A stretch of DNA of 43,320 nucleotides from a virus (Duplodnaviria; Heunggongvirae; Uroviricota; Caudoviricetes), in IMG/VR virus record IMGVR_UViG_2541047798_000010; one strand, 5' to 3'. Below, in pieces: positions 6,609-37,989 of this stretch. Numbering within the stretch: the stretch's first letter is position 1; each line of letters starts with the position of its first letter. Under the pieces are notes generated by a model. The model did not search any database and had not been told where the DNA came from. It was given only the letters and a program-made list of their open reading frames with translations. The position numbers were made by a program, and so were the translations under genes.

Positions 6609-6623
6609 TTACCTTTCGGGTAA
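6609..6623. promoter_or_regulatory. Operator-type palindrome TTACC-N5-GGTAA (copy upstream of LexA-controlled gene, in divergent region with tailspike)
   Basis: ATTACCTTTCGGGTAAT; perfect match to the motif found at OR and OL. Confidence 0.6.
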
Positions 6624-7003: not shown

Positions 7004-7094
7004 ATTTACATCGCACTCCTCTTGTGCCATAGTAATCGGGCACTGGCAAAATCCAGTGCCGGGATTGGCGTCCCGGGTTACTAAGTGGCGCATA

Positions 7095-7117
7095 CCACGC
7101 CAGACGTGGTTTTTTTA
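7095..7117 (+). terminator. Rho-independent terminator inside the ant1 leader
   Basis: Stem CCACG/CGTGG followed by TTTTTTTAT; preceded by two further stem-loops (GGCACTGG/CCAGTGCC and CCGGGA/TCCCGG). Confidence 0.55.
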
Positions 7118-7272
7118 TGCGTTAAGCACAGCTATATCCGAATTATGGTGGGCTGGGCAGGGGTCCGAAAGGACGCCGGTACCACTTAGGCCGGTACGCC
7201 AACCTTGTCCAGTTCACCACCAGTAATTGGCGTTGCGGTGGTGATTAAAATCACTAAGTGGAGATAACCACC

Positions 7273-7983
7273 ATGGCTAATGCTCAAACTGCCATCTTCA
7301 AATTTGAATCTGTTAACCCTATCCGTTCCATCATTATCGATGGCCAACCATGGTTTGTAGCCCAAGACGTTTGTAGTGCGCTGCGTATCCAAAACGTCAC
7401 CCAAGCACTTGAAAAACTGGATGATGATGAAAGGTCTATGTTCAACATAGGGCATGAACATCGTGCAATTTTTGACAGCCGAGTAAAAGAGATCAACATT
7501 ATCTCCGAGTCAGGCCTCTACACACTGATCCTCCGCTGCCGCGACGCAGTGACACCAGGCACTATCCCCTACCGCTTTCGTAAATGGGTTACAGGTGAGG
7601 TTCTTCCTCAGATCCGCCGCACCGGAAGTTACATTAAAAACTCGCTCCCGCAGGAAGAACGCATAAAGATGGTTGCCGACCAGGTAGCCAACGCCACAGC
7701 ATCAGCAGTGATGCAGGCAATGAAGATAGAGAACAAAACCTACAGCGCCCCGCTGAAGCCCGGCTACCGCAGCCTGATTCATTCGCCGTCTGGTGTTCTC
7801 GGCCTGACGGAGAACTCACTGCTGATGAATCTGCTGAACCAGTTACAGGAAGACGGGCACGATGTATCGGGCGCGGCGGCGGAGCTGACCACCATGTTTT
7901 GCTACATCGTTGGTGTGAGCAAATGCCTGCGTGATATCCAGACGCACGCGGAGTACATCAACGACAAGGCTGGGTTCTTCTGA
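7273..7983 (+). CDS. Antirepressor paralog 1 (Bro-N-like N-terminal domain plus shared C-terminal effector domain)
   Basis: 236 aa from ATG 7273 (RBS GGAG); N-terminal IFKFESVNPIRSIIIDGQPWFVAQDVCSAL is Bro-N/KilA-N-like; C-terminal half nearly identical to paralog 2. Confidence 0.8.
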   Translation: MANAQTAIFKFESVNPIRSIIIDGQPWFVAQDVCSALRIQNVTQALEKLDDDERSMFNIGHEHRAIFDSRVKEINIISESGLYTLILRCRDAVTPGTIPYRFRKWVTGEVLPQIRRTGSYIKNSLPQEERIKMVADQVANATASAVMQAMKIENKTYSAPLKPGYRSLIHSPSGVLGLTENSLLMNLLNQLQEDGHDVSGAAAELTTMFCYIVGVSKCLRDIQTHAEYINDKAGFF

Positions 7984-8199: not shown

Positions 8200-8739
8200 G
8201 TGTTAAGTGAAGAAATGCAATTTGCCATGGCTGTGGCTCAAATCGTAAGTGCAGTCGCGGTTTCGCTTGGCTTGTTCATAGCTATCGCTACTATTATTTA
8301 TAATGTAAATACAGCGAGAAAAGTACACACTTCAGTATTCCTTGGTGAAAGCAGGTTTGATGTAGATTATAAGAAAGGCCTATCTACTATGCGCCGCATT
8401 CACGAGTCGAACAAATCATTCCGCTCTTATATGTATCCAAGCAATGGGCAGGCTGATCTTACGGATGAAGAAAAGATAGAGAAGAGAGAAATAATTTACT
8501 GTCTAGGTTTCTACGAACGCATGGCTGTGAGCGTGAAGCGGAAAACTTATGATGAGACCATGATTAAGGAAGTATTTTACAGCTCCGTTGTAAATAACTA
8601 TCAGATTGCGCTACCTCTTATACAAGCTATTAGAGAAAAAGAAAACATAAACACATATTTTAAAGAATATGAATGGTTAGCCACACGATGGAAGGATTGT
8701 CCATTGAAGGACAAATCCCCGTGGTACAAGTTTTGGTAA
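8200..8739 (+). CDS. Membrane-anchored protein of unknown function; AT-rich cargo between the inverted ant genes (candidate superinfection-exclusion or abortive-infection protein)
   Basis: 179-aa ORF with GTG start at 8200 (GGAG 7 nt upstream) or ATG 8215; single N-terminal TM helix; markedly AT-rich; 3 of the first 8 Arg codons are AGA/AGG; followed by a strong terminator. Confidence 0.6.
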   Translation: MLSEEMQFAMAVAQIVSAVAVSLGLFIAIATIIYNVNTARKVHTSVFLGESRFDVDYKKGLSTMRRIHESNKSFRSYMYPSNGQADLTDEEKIEKREIIYCLGFYERMAVSVKRKTYDETMIKEVFYSSVVNNYQIALPLIQAIREKENINTYFKEYEWLATRWKDCPLKDKSPWYKFW

Positions 8740-9017: not shown

Positions 9018-9018
9018 G

Positions 9019-9030
9019 TGACATGTCACG
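9019..9030. repeat. 12-bp perfect palindrome GTGACATGTCAC (copy 1 of 3)
   Basis: Exact 12-mer also at 28175-28186 and 30629-30640. Confidence 0.6.
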
Positions 9031-9044
9031 ATAGTTTCGTTTTG

Positions 9045-9470
9045 CACATCCCTGTGCCGCCGTTCTGTCAGAAGAACCCTGCTTTGTCGTTGATATACTC
9101 CGCGTGGGTCTGGATATCACGCAGGCATTTGCTCACACCGACGATGTAGCAGAACATGGTGGTCAGCTCCGCCGCCGCGCCCGATACGTCGTGCCCGTCG
9201 TCCTGTAACTGGTTCAGCAGATTCATCAGCAGTGAGTTCTCCGTCAGGCCGAGAACACCAGACGGAGAATGAATCAGGCTGCGGTAGCCGGGCTTCAGCG
9301 GGGCACTGTAGATTTTGTTCTCTATCTTCATCGCCTGCATTACTGCTGACGCCGTGGCGTTGGCTACCTGGTCGGCAACCATCTTTATGCGTTCTTCCTG
9401 CGGGAGCGAGTTTTTAATGTAACTTCCGGTGCGGCGGATCTGAGGAAGTACTTCGCCTGTAACCCATTCA
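9045..9470. repeat. Right arm of the near-identical inverted repeat (3-prime half of ant2)
   Basis: Reverse complement matches 7585-8010. Confidence 0.8.
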
Positions 9471-9760
9471 AGAAATCTGAATGCTCTCGTTCCCTCAGTC
9501 ATTGCCTCTTTGCAACGCAGAATAAGGATGTAGAGACCTGATTCTGAAACGATGGATAGTTCTTGTATTCCACCAGGGGTCTGTATTGAATACAGCCCCT
9601 TTTTGTTCCAGCCTTTTTTATCAAGTTTTCTCGCTTGTGTAACATCAATATTCAAAGCATTGCACACATCTTTGGTGACAAACCAAGGTTCTCCGTCAAT
9701 CATGAACATACGGATCTGGCAGGATGACTCAAAGGAAAAGATGGAAGGTTTGGTATTCAT
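9068..9760 (-). CDS. Antirepressor paralog 2 (Bro-N-like N-terminal domain plus shared C-terminal effector domain), inverted relative to paralog 1
   Basis: 230 aa from ATG 9760 (RBS AGGTGA); N-terminal domain diverged from paralog 1, C-terminal about 130 aa near-identical. Confidence 0.8.
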   Translation of the reverse strand: MNTKPSIFSFESSCQIRMFMIDGEPWFVTKDVCNALNIDVTQARKLDKKGWNKKGLYSIQTPGGIQELSIVSESGLYILILRCKEAMTEGTRAFRFLEWVTGEVLPQIRRTGSYIKNSLPQEERIKMVADQVANATASAVMQAMKIENKIYSAPLKPGYRSLIHSPSGVLGLTENSLLMNLLNQLQDDGHDVSGAAAELTTMFCYIVGVSKCLRDIQTHAEYINDKAGFF

Positions 9761-10027
9761 GGCGATCACCTTTGTAGTTAGGTTAATCACCACCGCTGAG
9801 ACCAATCAGATGGTGGTGAACTGTGCAGAGTTGGTCTTACCGGCTACAAAGGAACCCGGCGCACCTTTCGGTGCCCCCACACAGCCCACCATAGAATAGG
9901 TGCGCTTTACACATAAAAAAACCGCTTATGCGGCATATGTGCCTCTGTAGTAATCCGGGAGACCAATCCCGGCACTGGATTTTGCCAGTGCCTGATTACT
10001 ATGGCACAAGAGGAGTGCGATGTAAAT

Positions 10028-24917: not shown

Positions 24918-25214
24918 TCACTCCTGTTCACTGGCCTCTTTGGCCATCTTCAAATACTGTTCAGGGCAATGCGCCATAACGCGCTGAAACAGTTCCAGCG
25001 CCAGATTGCGTTGCCCCTCATTAAATGCCATTGCCATAGCGTCCATCGGTGAGATAGCGGAAAACACACGGCCTTTCTCCAGCACCGACCAGACAACGCG
25101 ACGCCCCTGTTCACTGCTCATGACAAAGCGAATGTCATCAATTTCACGCTGCGCCATGTCACGTTGCTTACGGGCGTTTTCTTCTTTCAGTTGTTCGTCT
25201 TCGTAATCTGTCAT
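24918..25214 (-). CDS. Small hypothetical protein between portal and scaffold
   Basis: 98 aa; ATG 25214 overlaps the portal stop. Confidence 0.45.
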   Translation of the reverse strand: MTDYEDEQLKEENARKQRDMAQREIDDIRFVMSSEQGRRVVWSVLEKGRVFSAISPMDAMAMAFNEGQRNLALELFQRVMAHCPEQYLKMAKEASEQE

Positions 25215-26890
25215 TGTGATTGCCCACCCTGACCACTAACTGCATTCGCCATAGCTGACAAAACACTCGGATCCGAAGTTTTAGCTTCGCTTAGCGTCTT
25301 GGCACCCTGTGCCGCCGCCATCCCCATCGCCATCATTTGTTGCTGCTGTTGCTGCTGTGCCCGTTGCTGGCGAGCCTGCTCAACCTGTTCCTGCGGAACA
25401 ATGACGGTTGGAGACACTCCGGACATATCAGCGAATGCATCGATCGCTTGATCAACGTTGAGTTTGTCGAGAGCTTCTGGTTTCGCTTGCGCAAGTTGAC
25501 CAATGAAGTTAACCGTGGACGCCAGACTGGACAGGCCGATAGACTTCTGCGCCTGAGCCATGACGGAAATGTATTCGACCTTCAGGGGCATGCCTTCCAT
25601 CGCGTCAGGCGGTGGCGGCAGCATGTTTTTACGCACCATCATCGAGAAAGCGCGGTCAATGAGAGGATTAAGACATTCGTCGTTCAGACGCTCCAGAACC
25701 GGCCCCAACATCAGAAGTTTTTCTTCTTTCATTTCGATCACCGCTTCAACAGGCATCGAGCGGGTATTGATGTTCTGCAACATCATGAACAGATCGACAA
25801 AGTAGGCGCTGTTAATGATTTGACGAGTGTCCTGAATGTCTGCCACCAAATCTGCTGTACTGGGGTTAACCAGATAAGCAGGCCTGAAGCCATCCTGACC
25901 AGTAATCTGATCGATATACGTGATGTCGCCAGGAAGAAGGGAGGCGCGCTGATTCTTGAGGGAAGTCGGAGCAACCATCGGCGGATTGGTGGCTTTATCA
26001 ATCAACTGCGACTTGCGCTTCTGAAGAAGCTGCAATGCCTTAACAGCTCCAAGCGCCAGCATACCCGGGCATGATGATCCATAAACATCTTCGCCGTTAA
26101 CTTCCCAGCGCGGAGCCATAATTGGAAACTCATCGAATCCGGACTCACGCAACAACTTGTCGTTATCGCCACCAACCTCGTAATAAACCGATTTGAATGG
26201 CTTGTTCTTGCTATCCAGCTTCGATGTATCGCGGTCAATGTTCGGGTAAACCGAATGCATCACTTCAATCCACTTCTCGTAGGTGCCGCTTTCCCACATG
26301 CTTTTTACGGATTCGCTGACGTTATTTAGCCCGAACTCCTGAACAAGCTGACGAACAGTCATAGAGAACTTGCGGAAACAGGTGTCCACACTGCCACGAG
26401 GTGAGTTAGCCAGGTAGTAACTGCCTATCGGGAATGGCATTGTGCGAATGATGTCCTCGTCATCCTCCAGCACCGCCATTGCACCAGTGCTGTATGTGCC
26501 GAGGCTTCCGTATAACTGCGGAAGAGACTGGTAGAGATTCGACTTATTGAACATATCGTTCATGCGGTTCTGCACCGCCTCAAGCCACAACTTAACAGGG
26601 CCATAATCCATCATTTCAGGATCTGGCGTAGCCAGGCGAAACCACGGACGCGCGGGGCTTGTGATGCCTGACATCATGCCGCTGGCGAGAGTGCGCGCCG
26701 CCATAGTCCCGGTCGAATCAATAATGCGTGTATTGCGTCGATCGTTACGGTTGACCTCAGAAGTCAGAAAGCGGGAACCACGCGGGTTGATGTAATCACT
26801 CAACTCGCGCCAGTGCGGCTCGAACGACTGACGCTCGCTTTCAAGTTGTGCGAACTGTTTGTTCAATCGCTCTTTAGTTGTTTCCGCCAT
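25211..26890 (-). CDS. Portal (head-to-tail connector) protein
   Basis: 559 aa; RBS GGAG; first large gene of the head module; Gln-rich C-terminal tail. Confidence 0.75.
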   Translation of the reverse strand: MAETTKERLNKQFAQLESERQSFEPHWRELSDYINPRGSRFLTSEVNRNDRRNTRIIDSTGTMAARTLASGMMSGITSPARPWFRLATPDPEMMDYGPVKLWLEAVQNRMNDMFNKSNLYQSLPQLYGSLGTYSTGAMAVLEDDEDIIRTMPFPIGSYYLANSPRGSVDTCFRKFSMTVRQLVQEFGLNNVSESVKSMWESGTYEKWIEVMHSVYPNIDRDTSKLDSKNKPFKSVYYEVGGDNDKLLRESGFDEFPIMAPRWEVNGEDVYGSSCPGMLALGAVKALQLLQKRKSQLIDKATNPPMVAPTSLKNQRASLLPGDITYIDQITGQDGFRPAYLVNPSTADLVADIQDTRQIINSAYFVDLFMMLQNINTRSMPVEAVIEMKEEKLLMLGPVLERLNDECLNPLIDRAFSMMVRKNMLPPPPDAMEGMPLKVEYISVMAQAQKSIGLSSLASTVNFIGQLAQAKPEALDKLNVDQAIDAFADMSGVSPTVIVPQEQVEQARQQRAQQQQQQQMMAMGMAAAQGAKTLSEAKTSDPSVLSAMANAVSGQGGQSQ

Positions 26891-26904: not shown

Positions 26905-27111
26905 TTACTGACCAAGCAGCGTTTTACCGCTGGTATTAGCGGTTGATGTGTCGCCCTGAGAACCGGTAAGCAGCGTAGAACTACGACCAGCAGCAGCGCG
27001 ACGGCGACGAGTTTCTTCGTCGCGGGCATCAACAACGGCGGCATCCTGCTCCTGTGGTGCTGCCTGAACTTCTGGTGTTGCAGGCACTGATGGTGAGCTA
27101 CCCATGCACAT
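26905..27111 (-). CDS. Small Ala/Gln-rich protein, first ORF of the late operon; weak call
   Basis: 68 aa; RBS GGAG 8 nt upstream of ATG 27111; low-complexity sequence. Confidence 0.35.
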   Translation of the reverse strand: MCMGSSPSVPATPEVQAAPQEQDAAVVDARDEETRRRRAAAGRSSTLLTGSQGDTSTANTSGKTLLGQ

Positions 27112-27149
27112 ATCAATGACTCCGTACGCAATTAAATTATTACCAATTT

Positions 27150-27163
27150 AACCACATATGATT
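27150..27163. promoter_or_regulatory. Degenerate AACCA-N4-TG motif upstream of the late (portal) operon, 38 bp from an operator-type site
   Basis: AACCACATATGATT; compare AACCACATATGGAT at 6569-6582 upstream of the tailspike. Confidence 0.3.
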
Positions 27164-27201
27164 TATTTATCGTAGATAGTTGACATTTAACGCACTAATT
27201 A

Positions 27202-27216
27202 TTACCTTTCAGGTAA
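27202..27216. promoter_or_regulatory. Operator-type palindrome TTACC-N5-GGTAA upstream of the late operon
   Basis: TTACCTTTCAGGTAA; TTGACA hexamer at 27180-27185. Confidence 0.6.
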
Positions 27217-27239
27217 GCAAAGAGTTCATTCCGGTTATT

Positions 27240-27538
27240 AACCTGACTGGCTTGTCGTTAAATTGAACAGGTGGGGTGAGCTTTTATTTTGAGCAGTACG
27301 GTGTATGGCACATGCGCCGATAGCGGTCTGGATACGTTTAAGGGGCACCCTCCCTTGCTCGGGCAAACGAACCAGGTAGCCGGAATGTGCAAGTCGAGCG
27401 GTTTTATTCCGCGCACGGGGATTCACCATCCCGGCGATTCGGTGTGACGCCTCGGAAGAGACGAGGGTACAACGATGAGAGCATTTATGGAGCCGCGACA
27501 AAGTGTGGTGCCTTAACAGGCTAAGTGCTCTCAGCGTT
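27240..27538 (+). other. About 300-bp non-coding, stem-loop-rich segment upstream of the tRNA; possible leader or uncharacterised structured RNA
   Basis: No plausible ORF on either strand; several GC-rich stem-loops (for example GGGGAT/ATCCC, CCTCG/CGAGG, GCACAT/ATGTGC). Confidence 0.25.
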
Positions 27539-27615
27539 GTGGCATTAGCTCAGTTGGACAGAGCAACCGCCTTCTAAGCGGTTGGTCGCAGGTTCGAATC
27601 CTGCATGCCACGCCA
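27539..27615 (+). tRNA. tRNA-Arg (anticodon UCU, reads AGA), phage-encoded
   Basis: 77-nt cloverleaf: acceptor GTGGCAT/ATGCCAC, D-stem GCTC/GAGC, anticodon stem ACCGC/GCGGT with loop CTTCTAA, T-arm GCAGG-TTCGAAT-CCTGC, discriminator G and encoded CCA; differs from host argU. Confidence 0.9.
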
Positions 27616-27658
27616 GAATCACGCCTAAGGACCGTGATGCCAGAAGTTCCAGGGGCTT

Positions 27659-27701
27659 GGCGGTGATGGTTTCCCTTGAAGGACTATCACCGCCCTTTTT
27701 A
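27659..27701 (+). terminator. Rho-independent terminator downstream of the tRNA
   Basis: 9-bp stem GGCGGTGAT/ATCACCGCC followed by CTTTTT. Confidence 0.65.
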
Positions 27702-27778
27702 CAGCAGGACGCCATTGCGATGGCTTCATGCTGTAAACCAGTACAGCCACGGAAGGCATAACTCATTGCTTCCAGTTC

Positions 27779-27802
27779 GCCCGGTTCGCCGGGCATTTTT
27801 TT
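27779..27802 (+). terminator. Second hairpin plus U-tract immediately before the RBS of the next gene (terminator or attenuator)
   Basis: GCCCGG-TTCG-CCGGGC followed by ATTTTTTT, then AAGGTGA RBS and ATG 27814. Confidence 0.5.
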
Positions 27803-27813
27803 AAGGTGAGATT

Positions 27814-28170
27814 ATGAACGACCAGCAAATCGAAAAAGAAATCGCTGAGAAAGGCAAAACGGCACCGCGAGTTACGCCCCAATATATCGAAAGCATCATT
27901 CTTGAAGAGCATTTCTTTACTGCTTATGACGGCATTCGTGCTGCCAATATGGGCGTTGGCGATTCATGGACAGCGCATAAATCTACAGACCTCCTGACTT
28001 TCTGCGTACTGGTGCTGAAGAATGGCTTCACCGTCACCGGAGAGAGCGCCTGTGCAAGCCCGGAAAACTTTGATGCAGAAATTGGTCGGAAGATTGCCCG
28101 GCAGAATGCTGTAAACAAAATCTGGATGCTTGAAGGTTACTTGCTGAAGCAGAAGTTAAGCGAGCAATAA
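27814..28170 (+). CDS. Small phage protein, probably N4 Gp49 / Sf6 gp66-like family; plus-strand moron between terminase and portal
   Basis: 118 aa; RBS AAGGTGA; N-terminus MNDQQIEKEIAEKGKTAPRVT matches a widespread prophage protein family (assignment from memory). Confidence 0.5.
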   Translation: MNDQQIEKEIAEKGKTAPRVTPQYIESIILEEHFFTAYDGIRAANMGVGDSWTAHKSTDLLTFCVLVLKNGFTVTGESACASPENFDAEIGRKIARQNAVNKIWMLEGYLLKQKLSEQ

Positions 28171-28174
28171 CACC

Positions 28175-28186
28175 GTGACATGTCAC
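28175..28186. repeat. 12-bp perfect palindrome GTGACATGTCAC (copy 2 of 3), at convergent gene ends
   Basis: Exact 12-mer, 5 bp after the stop of the 27814-28170 gene and downstream of terL. Confidence 0.6.
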
Positions 28187-28260
28187 AAACAGCCAGCCTA
28201 TGAGCTGGCTTTGTTTTATCCTCACCAGAGGATATCAACGACATTATCCCCACCAGCGGA

Positions 28261-29736
28261 TTAAGCATAGGGATCGTAATCTGTAATGGCCTTGCCTTGC
28301 TGGTTCTGCTGACCTGGAATTCGCAGACGCTTCGACACAGGGAAAGCAAACGTCAGCAATAGCGCATCGCCTTTACCCGGCGAACGCCCAAGACGCTCTT
28401 TGATATCTTCCTTCGGTTCGATAACGATTTTACCGTCCACACGAACTTTGTACTCTGCCGCCGACAGGTCGTCTGCAGTTTCCTGGTCATCCAGCATGCC
28501 GCCCAGCCTCAGCCATGTCTTACATGAGTTGAACATCTCCCCACGCTTGTTAAGCATCTGCGGGTCAGTGGACGCACCGCCGAACGGAACAAGTTGCCAT
28601 GTACGTCCCCAGCCATCACCGATTGACTTCAGACCGGTTCCGTAACCGAAGTCGATGAACACCGCGTCAGCCTGGTACTGGTCTTCAAAGTCAGCGATAC
28701 GCTTCGCCATAATCAGATCGTCGGTGGTCTTGTTGCCGGTCCACAGCACCTTACTGTGCAGCCCCTGCCGCAGGTATATCACCGCGTCATCAACGCCTGA
28801 ATATGCCGGGTCAACACCGATTATCACCGGAGCATGTGCAACCTGCGCAGCGGTTACCACCCGTTTCATTGCCTCGTCAGTAAGACCGGTAGGGATAAAC
28901 TGCAATTCAGATGCATCAGGGAATATGCCACGCACACGGATTTTAACGAAGTCGCTATCTTCCCCGTAGTCATCAACCCATTTCTGCAACTGCTGTTTGT
29001 TGGTGCCTTCCACCGTCCTGCTGTCAATCTGCGCAGTTTTCCAGCGGTGTTTGTATTTGCGGAAACATTCACGGAAACGCCCGGTGTTACGTGTAGGGTT
29101 TCCGAAAGCCACCCAGATAATCTCAGTGTCTTCGTCCGTTAGCGCACCCTCGGCAACTTCCCACACCAGATCCGCAATGTTCGACGCTTCATCAAATACC
29201 ACGATGATGCGTTTACGCTCGTTGTGTAGTCCGGCGAATGCCTCAGTGTTGTGCTCAGACCAGGGGATTGCGTCAGCTCGCCACCGCTTGTCGTGCCCAG
29301 GGTCATTGCTGTACATCGCGGTAGCGGTACAGGTAAACCAGTCTTTCGTGATAGCAAGGTTTGACCACTTGATAATTTCCGGCCAGGTCTTCGTTCGTAG
29401 CTGGTTGTCGGTGTTGGCGGTCACCACGACCTTACAATCCTCGCAAGTGGACATGCCCCAGTTGGTCAGCATTGAGATGAATGCGGATTTACCAATACCG
29501 TGACCAGAAGCACGTGCCAGCATAAGCGGCTGATATCGCGTCTCTGGATTCTGCAGGTGATCACGTATCTCTCGGAACGCATCAGCCTGCCACTGACGTG
29601 GGCCGGTGGCATGTGCCAGTTCAGTCCCCTCTTCCCCCCATGGGAACGCATAGAGGGCATAGCCAAGCGGATCGTGAGTGAACCCTGCAATATCCTCGAT
29701 TAACTGCTCTTCAGGAGATAACGCTGTATCTGTCAC
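28261..29736 (-). CDS. terL: Terminase large subunit
   Basis: 491 aa; GTG start overlapping the terS stop (GTGA); Walker A-like GHGIGKS; C-terminal nuclease region. Confidence 0.9.
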   Translation of the reverse strand: MTDTALSPEEQLIEDIAGFTHDPLGYALYAFPWGEEGTELAHATGPRQWQADAFREIRDHLQNPETRYQPLMLARASGHGIGKSAFISMLTNWGMSTCEDCKVVVTANTDNQLRTKTWPEIIKWSNLAITKDWFTCTATAMYSNDPGHDKRWRADAIPWSEHNTEAFAGLHNERKRIIVVFDEASNIADLVWEVAEGALTDEDTEIIWVAFGNPTRNTGRFRECFRKYKHRWKTAQIDSRTVEGTNKQQLQKWVDDYGEDSDFVKIRVRGIFPDASELQFIPTGLTDEAMKRVVTAAQVAHAPVIIGVDPAYSGVDDAVIYLRQGLHSKVLWTGNKTTDDLIMAKRIADFEDQYQADAVFIDFGYGTGLKSIGDGWGRTWQLVPFGGASTDPQMLNKRGEMFNSCKTWLRLGGMLDDQETADDLSAAEYKVRVDGKIVIEPKEDIKERLGRSPGKGDALLLTFAFPVSKRLRIPGQQNQQGKAITDYDPYA

Positions 29737-30628: not shown

Positions 30629-30640
30629 GTGACATGTCAC
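30629..30640. repeat. 12-bp perfect palindrome GTGACATGTCAC (copy 3 of 3)
   Basis: Overlaps the stop codon of the zinc-ribbon gene, 10 bp upstream of ATG 30619. Confidence 0.6.
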
Positions 30641-37404: not shown

Positions 37405-37989
37405 ATGAAAAGTATCCAGGACGTCCGCAGGCAAAATCTCAACGACTTGATCGACCGTGAATTCAATGGTGTTCAGACGCGGATGGCAGAAAAACTTGGA
37501 ACTCAGGCAAATCTGGTAAACCGCTGGGCTCTTGGCAAGAAGGTTATCGGCGACCAGGTTGCACGAAAAATTGAAGCTGCCGCCAATAAACCCCGTAACT
37601 GGCTTGATATTGATCGTTCGCTTTCTCAGGAGGGTTTTCAGCCTGTCGGCCCGAGCGATATAGGTCAGTTGGCGGCTCACAACCTGGAACGCTGGATGAG
37701 CGAAAGCCGCGACCTTTCAACACAGGGAAAACTTCACCGCGCATCCGGCGTCGCCCAGGTGACAATCAGCCGCCTGTTAAACAATGAGGTCAGCGTTTCC
37801 ATTTCCACTCTGGAGAATGTTGCATCCGCATTCGGGCGTCACGGATATGAACTACTGATTCACCCGCACGACCCTGCGACTATCAACTATGACCGCTCAC
37901 GCTACGCATTGTTACCCGAAACCGAGAAAGCAAAGATCGAAAGTTACATTGAATTTGTCATCAACCAGAACGAAAAAAGCAAACAATAA
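37405..37989 (+). CDS. Prophage repressor with two tandem HTH (XRE-type) domains and no LexA-like autocleavage (S24) domain
   Basis: 194 aa; HTH-like segments near aa 20-60 and 95-150; divergent from cro-like gene; own terminator downstream. Confidence 0.7.
   Translation: MKSIQDVRRQNLNDLIDREFNGVQTRMAEKLGTQANLVNRWALGKKVIGDQVARKIEAAANKPRNWLDIDRSLSQEGFQPVGPSDIGQLAAHNLERWMSESRDLSTQGKLHRASGVAQVTISRLLNNEVSVSISTLENVASAFGRHGYELLIHPHDPATINYDRSRYALLPETEKAKIESYIEFVINQNEKSKQ

Follow-up and report, generated by a model that had tools for sequence, protein, structure and literature searches.

Our analysis identified a conserved structured RNA of ~240 nt (positions 27297-27538, plus strand) encoded in the viral DNA IMGVR_UViG_2541047798_000010, a stretch of 43,320 nucleotides that was analyzed at its full length and is referred to here as the window. 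This RNA folds into helices P1 to P6 and two pseudoknots, and its identification as a functional RNA family transcribed from the plus strand is well supported by covariation. It is located in a plus-strand island of 1149 bp (27112-28260) between the portal and large terminase (terL) genes, which is probably an early RNA operon under repressor control in a Uetakevirus prophage. The island would be organized, in order, as a promoter with an overlapping operator, the structured RNA, a tRNA-Arg(UCU), a first terminator (T1), a conserved hairpin region, a second terminator (T2), a Gp49-family accessory gene, and a third terminator (T3). A preliminary description of this DNA had regarded the non-coding part of the island as a leader or an uncharacterized small RNA, which was right in kind but far too modest, as the RNA belongs to a covarying, pseudoknotted family present in three unrelated phage groups.

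The non-coding stretch that precedes the tRNA had been described as stem-loop-rich and 300 bp long. Its plus strand is more stable than shuffled sequence (z -3.2), which bears out the structure but not the length, since it spans 407 nt (27132-27538). The evidence for a conserved fold comes from a structure-blind MAFFT alignment of 62 copies less than 93% identical to each other. In this alignment, 96% of the cells are paired under the proposed structure, as compared with 24-46% in controls with the pairing partners shifted by 1-3 columns, and 13 pairs show changes on both sides (129 cells), a result matched by none of 500 shuffles. Covariation supports P1 (27299-27303/27315-27319), P2 (27327-27376), P4 (27418-27421/27429-27432), P5 (27450-27466), and the pseudoknot PK2 (27424-27427 with 27441-27444), and the distal P2 helix covaries extensively under a conserved apical loop, YYCCUUG, identified by per-sequence folding. 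P3 (~27398-27412) is a variable hairpin also placed by per-sequence folding, and the other pseudoknot, PK1 (27308-27313 with 27385-27390), is a plausible proposal, its strands being invariant. The alignment has 44 invariant columns, many of the invariant nucleotides being unpaired, and among phages blocks of invariant sequence alternate with variable hairpins. G-U pairs are frequent, which assigns the RNA to the plus strand, the same as the tRNA. A covariance model built from the alignment (R1) recovers the core of the element (27297-27468, plus strand) with 138.9 bits (E 2.7e-43) as the single copy in the window, and the invariant junction of the proposed family, GGUAGCCGGAAUGUGCAAG, occurs in this copy together with P1, P2, P4, PK2, and P5.

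The core is followed by the P6 domain (27468-27541, plus strand), a long closing helix around a variable insert, with a 5' strand that starts at 27469 (ACAACGATGAGAGCATT) and a 3' strand at 27523-27541 (AAGTGCTCTCAGCGTTGTG), the final 3 nt of which are the opening 3 nt of the tRNA-Arg. The two strands of P6 differ among subfamilies yet compensate each other, and for 58 distinct sequences the predicted duplex energies lie between -24 and -33 kcal/mol. The support for P6 consists of these per-sequence duplexes and not of a formal pair count, as the gapless MAFFT alignment put two length variants out of register. T-arm-like hairpins (GGTTCGAATCC, GGTTCGATTCC, and GGTTCAATTCC) are found before the 3' strand of P6 in phages BUCT554 and SPC32H (loci L013 and L003) and in two further loci (L134 and L138), and could correspond to tRNA fragments or to a tRNA-like mini-helix.

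A BLAST search with the non-coding stretch revealed ~80% identity to non-coding DNA of otherwise unrelated phages. In P1, P7, D6, SJ46, and RCS47, the copy sits between trnI and the ban helicase gene; in lambdoid phages (cdtI, mEp460, mEp390, Ayreon, and Stx2c/Stx2a phages), it is encoded just downstream of the CI-like repressor gene; and in Uetakeviruses it lies upstream of a tRNA. Further copies were detected in a phage deposited as a Stenotrophomonas phage and in Klebsiella phage SopranoGao. Among 160 scanned loci, 75 are directly downstream of a CI/LexA-type repressor gene and on the same strand, 39 belong to Uetakeviruses, and ~20 are P1-like. The element is present in 1840 of 5426 complete Escherichia coli genomes (BLAST), and no annotated RefSeq feature lies on it in the E. 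coli genomes among the matches listed; one of the matches is in the uropathogenic strain UTI89 (NZ_CP064825.1, 4994672-4994915). An invariant 19-mer of the family (GGTAGCCGRAATGTGCAAG) has 23 true copies in contigs representing one genome per species, nearly all assigned to Enterobacteriaceae, and at least 120 copies in viral contigs. Matches to this 19-mer in metagenome bins of Bacillota and Flavobacteriales were rejected in four cases (L023, L027, L030, and L034) as chance matches with no other similarity; a fifth, on a 1.7-kb contig (L041), is a true copy that is probably misbinned. Taken from these contexts, the RNA appears to be a self-contained mobile module that moves between unrelated phages and positions. 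In several GenBank records, open reading frames (ORFs) have been placed over the RNA or in antisense orientation to the tRNA, including PhiV10p04 (L001, 3446-3697), mEp460 gp37 (L005, 2443-2811), and those at 2305-2556 of L013 and 2406-2567 of L015; given the RNA evidence, these ORFs are probably spurious.

The relationship of the RNA with tRNAs is variable. In 110 of the 160 loci there is no tRNA within 400 nt; a tRNA-Arg(TCT) is encoded on the same strand 69-135 nt past the core in 30, and a tRNA(CAT) 15-17 nt upstream of the core in 20, which is the arrangement of P1-like phages. Within the set of 62 representatives, the end of P6 carries a tRNA-Arg in seven. In 27 others of this set the sequence GUUGUGG at the end of P6 pairs with CCACAAC located 70-290 nt downstream (chance 0.018 each). 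In mEp460 (L005, 2738-2875), the domain delimited by GUUGUGG(UGA) and (UCA)CCACAAC folds as a four-way, cloverleaf-like junction in the slot of the tRNA-Arg. The sequence that follows this cloverleaf-shaped domain in some Uetakeviruses matches the sequence that follows the tRNA of the window, which makes the tRNA and the domain alternative cassettes of one slot. In one relative (L167), the cloverleaf-shaped domain occurs without the core, and the pL transcript begins directly at GUUGUGG.

A candidate early promoter was inferred from sequence upstream of the RNA (27180-27208, plus strand), with a -35 element TTGACA (27180-27185), a 17-nt spacer, and a -10 element TACCTT (27203-27208). A promoter consensus scan did not call this candidate, its -10 element being weak. 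TTGAC and the bases shared by the -10 element and the operator are invariant in seven Uetakeviruses from E. coli, Salmonella, Klebsiella, and Enterobacter. The operator that overlaps the -10 element is a palindrome (TTACCTTTCAGGTAA, 27202-27216) of the form TTACC-N5-GGTAA, of which the window has 13 copies (0.7 expected) dispersed over the prophage, at positions 6609, 6989, 8056, 10028, 27202, 30332, 30350, 34967, 35029, 37287, 37335, 38047, and 38109. Copies flank both sides of an HTH_3 repressor candidate (37405-37989), and the matching site in the epsilon15 record is annotated as a repressor-binding site. One repressor seems to govern many scattered operators, as C1 does in P1. The presence of an operator over the island promoter suggests that the island is probably an early lytic unit, and that its tRNA is probably made after derepression and not in the lysogen, where the cargo genes would need it.

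A comparable arrangement was observed in the other phage groups. In mEp460, the stop codon of cI is followed by the cI terminator, two oL operators of the oR type, a plausible pL, and then the RNA, which starts ~38 nt past the predicted pL start; in the window, it starts ~80 nt past the predicted transcription start. The P1 copy is part of the C1-controlled ban operon, in a mid-operon position 2.3 kb from the promoter. Judging from these predicted promoters, early transcripts under repressor control would carry the RNA in each of the three phage groups.

Close relatives differ in whether the RNA is encoded, a pattern shared with accessory and anti-defense functions. The same first early-left gene was found in 80 viral loci, 51 with the RNA and 29 without it. 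The relatives without the RNA retain the downstream terminator hairpin, and no cryptic copy of the core was detected in those examined. One such relative of mEp460 (L172, 1258-2365) has a canonical boxA (CGCTCTTTAACAA) in its pL leader, together with a sub-threshold STnc100-like match (36 bits, threshold 47) that ends in the very terminator kept downstream of the mEp460 element. A canonical boxA is also present ~35 nt past the core in three subfamilies (3 of the 62 representatives). In epsilon15, the RNA is reduced to a remnant of 83 nt (L006, 2812-2894) with no tRNA, and T2 and a Gp49-like gene are kept. In the epsilon15 record, this region also bears an annotated RNase III site, located on the opposite strand.

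Downstream of the tRNA, the island carries a series of hairpins on the plus strand, and the region 27616-27813 folds with a z-score of -4.3. The first, ATCACG...CGTGAT (27618-27638), is invariant across Uetakeviruses. It is followed by T1 (27659-27701), with a hairpin at 27659-27694 formed by a 14-pair stem and then CTTTTTAC; by a hairpin region conserved across genera (27703-27778); and by T2 (27779-27802), with a hairpin at 27779-27794 followed by ATTTTTTT, which includes seven U. Both were predicted as terminators from a G+C-rich hairpin and a U run, and their stems covary among Uetakeviruses. The two intrinsic terminators of the preliminary description are present, but three are predicted in the island: T3 (28191-28218, hairpin 28191-28210), which had not been counted, is located after the Gp49 gene and closes the island, and is annotated as a rho-independent terminator in phiV10. 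A terminator scan returned five sites (1.8 expected). The conserved hairpin and T2 together (27703-27802) have the layout of a small RNA of ~100 nt, and the hairpin region is possibly a separate small RNA that ends at T2; Rfam searches with 27703-27802 returned chance-level matches only (RyhB, 18 bits). The loop of T1 (27670-27680) has the motif UUYCCUUGA, as found in the P2 apical loops of relatives, and in SPC32H 13 nt are identical between the T1 loop and the P2 apical loop. This motif resembles the anti-Shine-Dalgarno CCUCCUU of 16S rRNA, and could also pair with GGAAG of the P5 loop.

The U run of T2 abuts the ribosome-binding site of a small gene (27814-28170, plus strand) that had been taken for Gp49-like, and it is indeed a member of the Phage_gp49_66 family (Pfam PF13876; 118.7 bits, cut-off 27; E 1.6e-34). 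No promoter-like site was found between T1 and the ATG of this gene in a scan of the window. The Gp49 match coincides, in phage Huey, with a gene that is annotated as anti-CRISPR. As described previously, the gene ends at a copy of a 12-bp palindrome (GTGACATGTCAC, 28175-28186), 4 nt past its stop codon; the palindrome has three exact copies in the window (9018-9029, 28175-28186, and 30629-30640), with 0.2 expected. The ~200 nt that separate the tRNA from the start codon of the cargo gene are conserved in Uetakeviruses from E. coli, Klebsiella, and Salmonella despite differing cargo genes. In relatives (e.g., L012, 2697-3218, and L077, 742-1317), this cargo slot is occupied by Gp49, by a DUF2829 gene similar to Tad2 (Thoeris anti-defense 2), or by other genes, and the island may be an anti-defense locus.

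When a structured RNA combines many invariant nucleotides with two pseudoknots and a broad horizontal distribution, it has usually proved to be a ribozyme, a sensor, or a partner of central cell machinery. For the RNA described here, we tentatively favor a role as an accessory stand-alone RNA that would be freed by tRNA processing and would act on a host factor. According to this reading, loss of the repressor would at once allow synthesis of the RNA; RNase P, in maturing the abutting tRNA, would free the 3' end of the RNA, and in P1-like phages the maturation of the upstream tRNA would free its 5' side. The freed RNA would then bind a conserved enterobacterial component, as part of an early host-takeover or counter-defense program. 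We favor this reading because the RNA is a closed module with defined ends; because the flanking tRNA or tRNA-shaped domain could set these ends through RNase P; because the module moves between unrelated phages and positions, including the mid-operon position in P1; because it is present or absent among close relatives; and because its neighbors are variable genes of accessory or anti-defense type (Gp49 and the Tad2-like DUF2829). That epsilon15, a viable phage, has lost most of the RNA was also counted in favor of an accessory role.

A number of observations weigh against a stand-alone role. The cloverleaf-shaped domain obtains no significant score with the Rfam tRNA families, and its fold is no better than that of shuffled sequences (z -1.4). 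In lambdoid phages, a start ~38 nt past the predicted pL start is the place of the cis-acting nut and put elements, and the canonical boxA of the three subfamilies mentioned above comes right after the core. Finally, the Gp49 gene lies behind T1 and T2 with no promoter of its own, an arrangement that read-through in cis would explain neatly.

An alternative that we regard as possible but doubtful, and as only slightly less likely than the stand-alone reading, is that the RNA represents a new fold of processive antiterminator that acts in cis, in which the nascent RNA would bind the transcribing host RNA polymerase, as HK022 put or Bacillus EAR do. The polymerase would then read through T1 and T2, as well as the terminator of the lambdoid early-left leader, with no need of an N-like protein. 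Consistent with this idea, the RNA is always in sense orientation and near the start of repressor-controlled early transcripts, and between it and the first ORF there are terminators but no promoter, both in the window and in 28 of 32 distinct Uetakevirus loci. The same terminator layout is found in several lambdoid subfamilies (e.g., mEp460, 2885-2932, and BUCT708). Moreover, no N gene is annotated in mEp460, and of nine downstream ORF families compared with Pfam, none matched an N-type family. The occurrence of boxA, which occupies the slot of the RNA in the relative lacking the element and follows the core in three subfamilies, points in the same direction. An Arg-rich ORF of 24 codons located after the mEp460 element was considered as an N-like peptide and discarded, as it is not conserved in other subfamilies.

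On the other hand, relatives that lack the core keep the same terminator and first gene, one of them (L167) having neither core nor boxA, and epsilon15 keeps T2 and its Gp49-like gene without the core. Distance from the promoter in P1 also argues against antitermination, as does the presence of a single copy per phage: only one was detected in bases 20000-44510 of mEp460, which include both early operons, and none is on the pR side. In several lambdoid subfamilies, the first ORF is not preceded by a terminator. Whether the RNA is statistically associated with downstream terminators was examined, and the link was rejected, since a strict scan found few terminators and a relaxed scan found many, in nearly equal number on the control strand (52 of 61 loci in sense and 47 of 61 on the opposite strand), so the association is not statistically secure; the terminators cited here downstream of the RNA are the individually convincing ones only.

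It is improbable that the RNA is a passive 5' leader of the tRNA or of an mRNA, with hairpins that aid processing or stability, and that the biology of the island is codon supplementation alone. The RNA does abut the tRNA, and AGA usage is raised 4.3-fold in the prophage. However, more than two-thirds of the loci have no nearby tRNA, as stated above (110 of 160), and 44 invariant columns with compensatory changes over three unrelated phage groups are unlike a spacer. Quite improbable, too, is a riboswitch-like leader that senses a ligand or signal, in which the pseudoknotted core would be the aptamer and an alternative pairing of GUUGUGG would set the fate of the transcript. The compact pseudoknotted core and its many invariant unpaired nucleotides would fit such a sensor, and the GUUG that ends the 3' side of P6 has two possible pairing partners, CAAC upstream and CCACAAC downstream. 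However, the downstream genes are inconsistent (tRNA, ban, Gp49, YfdQ-type, and others), the terminators are 120-400 nt away with no overlap with the core, and in the window the tRNA replaces the alternative pairing partner. A protein-coding gene on the opposite strand or a DNA-level site is extremely improbable. ORFs of 45-122 amino acids can be drawn across the RNA (mEp460 gp37, BUCT554 QQM14145, and, in the window, 27238-27501 on the minus strand, 87 amino acids), but coding potential was ruled out on both strands by substitutions that are compensatory in helices, by G-U pairs that are legal only on the plus strand, and by core lengths of 146-178 nt across the family with differences that are not multiples of three, and the RefSeq pipeline calls no gene there in the E. 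coli genomes among the matches listed.

The complete tRNA-Arg reading AGA that had been noticed in the island (27539-27615, plus strand) was recovered both by ARAGORN (anticodon tct) and by the Rfam tRNA model (RF00005; 73.3 bits, threshold 29; E 2.7e-14), and its CCA end is encoded. Its host counterpart is argU. The acceptor and anticodon stems of the window tRNA differ from those of argU, the tRNA being otherwise ordinary. Apart from any role of the structured RNA, this tRNA would supply AGA decoding to phage genes that use AGA at four times the host rate. The ORFs of the window, a set picked mechanically that includes a few doubtful ones, have 7.7 AGA and 6.5 AGG per 1000 codons, compared with 1.8 and 0.8 in a host sample of thirty annotated chromosomal genes of a strain that carries the same prophage (odds ratios 4.3 and 8.0; Fisher p 1.5e-12 and 2.7e-15). 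Both codons are therefore elevated over the host, as the proposal of codon supply had anticipated. The more specific suggestion that the tRNA serves AT-rich cargo genes fared less well: AGA is enriched, but it is concentrated in tail, tailspike, and early genes plus a few AT-rich genes, with none in head genes, which leaves the link with cargo weak. One of the AT-rich genes (8200-8739; 39% G+C), encoding a DUF4760 protein, has three AGA and one AGG among its 10 Arg codons.

With respect to its genomic setting, the window is an epsilon15/phiV10-like podovirus prophage of the genus Uetakevirus, an assignment based on the annotated neighbors of the island. The small and large terminase genes flank it on one side, and the opposite side carries the genes for the epsilon15 gp3 homologue, the portal, the protease, and the major capsid protein. 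More than 200 complete E. coli genomes contain prophages with 98% identity to region 27100-28260, and phiV10, TL-2011b, and the O157 typing phages 9 and 10 cover 84-100% of it. The gap of about 1.1 kb of opposite-strand material reported between terL (28261-29736) and the portal gene (25211-26890), both on the minus strand, agrees with the 1149 bp of the island; an ORF for the gp3 homologue (26905-27111, minus strand, 68 amino acids) also sits on the portal side. Elsewhere in the window, two inverted pairs of isrK and C4 antisense RNAs (Rfam, 66-79 bits) are encoded at 7040-7224 (plus strand) and 9809-9991 (minus strand), each upstream of a Bro-N antirepressor-like gene (7258-7983, plus strand, and 9068-9805, minus strand) and each preceded by a TTACC-N5-GGTAA operator (6989 and 10028). 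This arrangement looks like a duplicated immunity module of the P1/P7 immI type in a podovirus prophage.

The RNA family was previously unannotated. None of the 4227 models of Rfam 15, which should include GOLLD, ROOL, and EAR, matched 27132-27538 with E up to 10, nor the element in seven other member loci with E up to 0.1. Literature searches with exact sequence motifs returned nothing relevant, and no description was found in the searchable literature on phage structured RNAs, put, the P1 ban operon, anti-defense RNAs, and recent non-coding RNA surveys; the family may be listed, unnamed and uncharacterized, in bulk catalogues such as a 2023 catalogue of 10,006 unnamed viral RNAs (PMC10690425) or a 2026 preprint on mining non-coding elements. 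The RNA has remained without annotation in well-studied systems, including the P1 ban operon, the Stx2-converting phages of E. coli O157, and many lambdoid early-left leaders. We consider it quite possible, if not quite probable, that it founds a new class of large, pseudoknotted RNAs in phages and acts directly on a core host machine, either as a protein-independent antiterminator with a fold unrelated to put or as an RNA decoy that tRNA processing would set free to disarm a host factor or defense system at the onset of lytic growth.

The putL and putR RNAs of HK022 are protein-independent processive antiterminators, which suppress termination in cis through the zinc-binding domain of the RNA polymerase beta-prime subunit. 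Like them, the RNA sits close to the promoter in pL transcripts of lambdoid phages, an N gene not having been found in these, with no dedicated phage protein nearby and with terminators downstream. The put RNAs are ~70 nt long, have two stem-loops, and are present after both pL and pR (PMC9378689). In contrast, the core of the RNA described here measures ~170 nt and comprises five helices and two pseudoknots, to which P6 is added; the RNA occurs once per phage, and is also found mid-operon in P1 and beside tRNAs. The identity of the RNA as put was ruled out by size, fold, copy number, and a model search of HK022, in which R1, run with filters off on the early region, reached 5.8 bits at best. 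If the RNA is a protein-free antiterminator, it would explain early-left expression in lambdoid phages where an N gene was not found.

The RNA also shares with the lambda nut sites and the boxA of rrn leaders its slot just past pL, and boxA follows the core in 3 of the 62 representatives and fills the slot in the relative lacking the element. These elements serve Nus-factor antitermination, and a lambda-type nut site consists of a boxA similar to YGCUCUUUAACAA and a boxB hairpin after it, accompanied by an N-type protein gene. The RNA differs from nut in that the window copy has no canonical boxA and no N-like gene was found downstream. A boxA-like sequence in P6 (UGCUCUC/UGCUCUUU) was considered as a clue to Nus factors and rejected; as UGCUCUC is the 3' strand of a freely changing, covarying helix, the resemblance in the window is probably coincidental.

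The tRNA itself resembles other phage-encoded tRNA-Arg(UCU) that supplement rare codons, as it reads AGA and this codon is enriched 4.3-fold in the prophage ORFs. Several RNAs are matured by tRNA-processing enzymes, including the C4 RNA of P1 and P7, which is cut by RNase P, the stable RNAs C and D of the T4 tRNA cluster, and, by analogy, MALAT1-mascRNA. In common with these, the RNA is a non-tRNA RNA joined to a tRNA or tRNA-shaped structure that could define its end. It has no sequence or model similarity to them, C4 itself being encoded elsewhere in the window, where it is recognized by Rfam.

Finally, GOLLD and ROOL are large, ornate RNAs associated with prophages and often located next to tRNA genes. 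The RNA resembles them in being phage-borne, often tRNA-adjacent, and intricately folded in a conserved manner, with no associated protein gene. It is smaller (170-240 nt; ~400 nt at most when the cloverleaf-shaped domain is counted), has no Rfam match, is restricted, as sampled, to phages of Enterobacteriaceae, and lies behind promoters that appear to be early and repressor-controlled. Should it prove to be a stand-alone RNA freed by tRNA processing, it would be an enterobacterial and genetically tractable counterpart of the unexplained, tRNA-adjacent GOLLD and ROOL RNAs.

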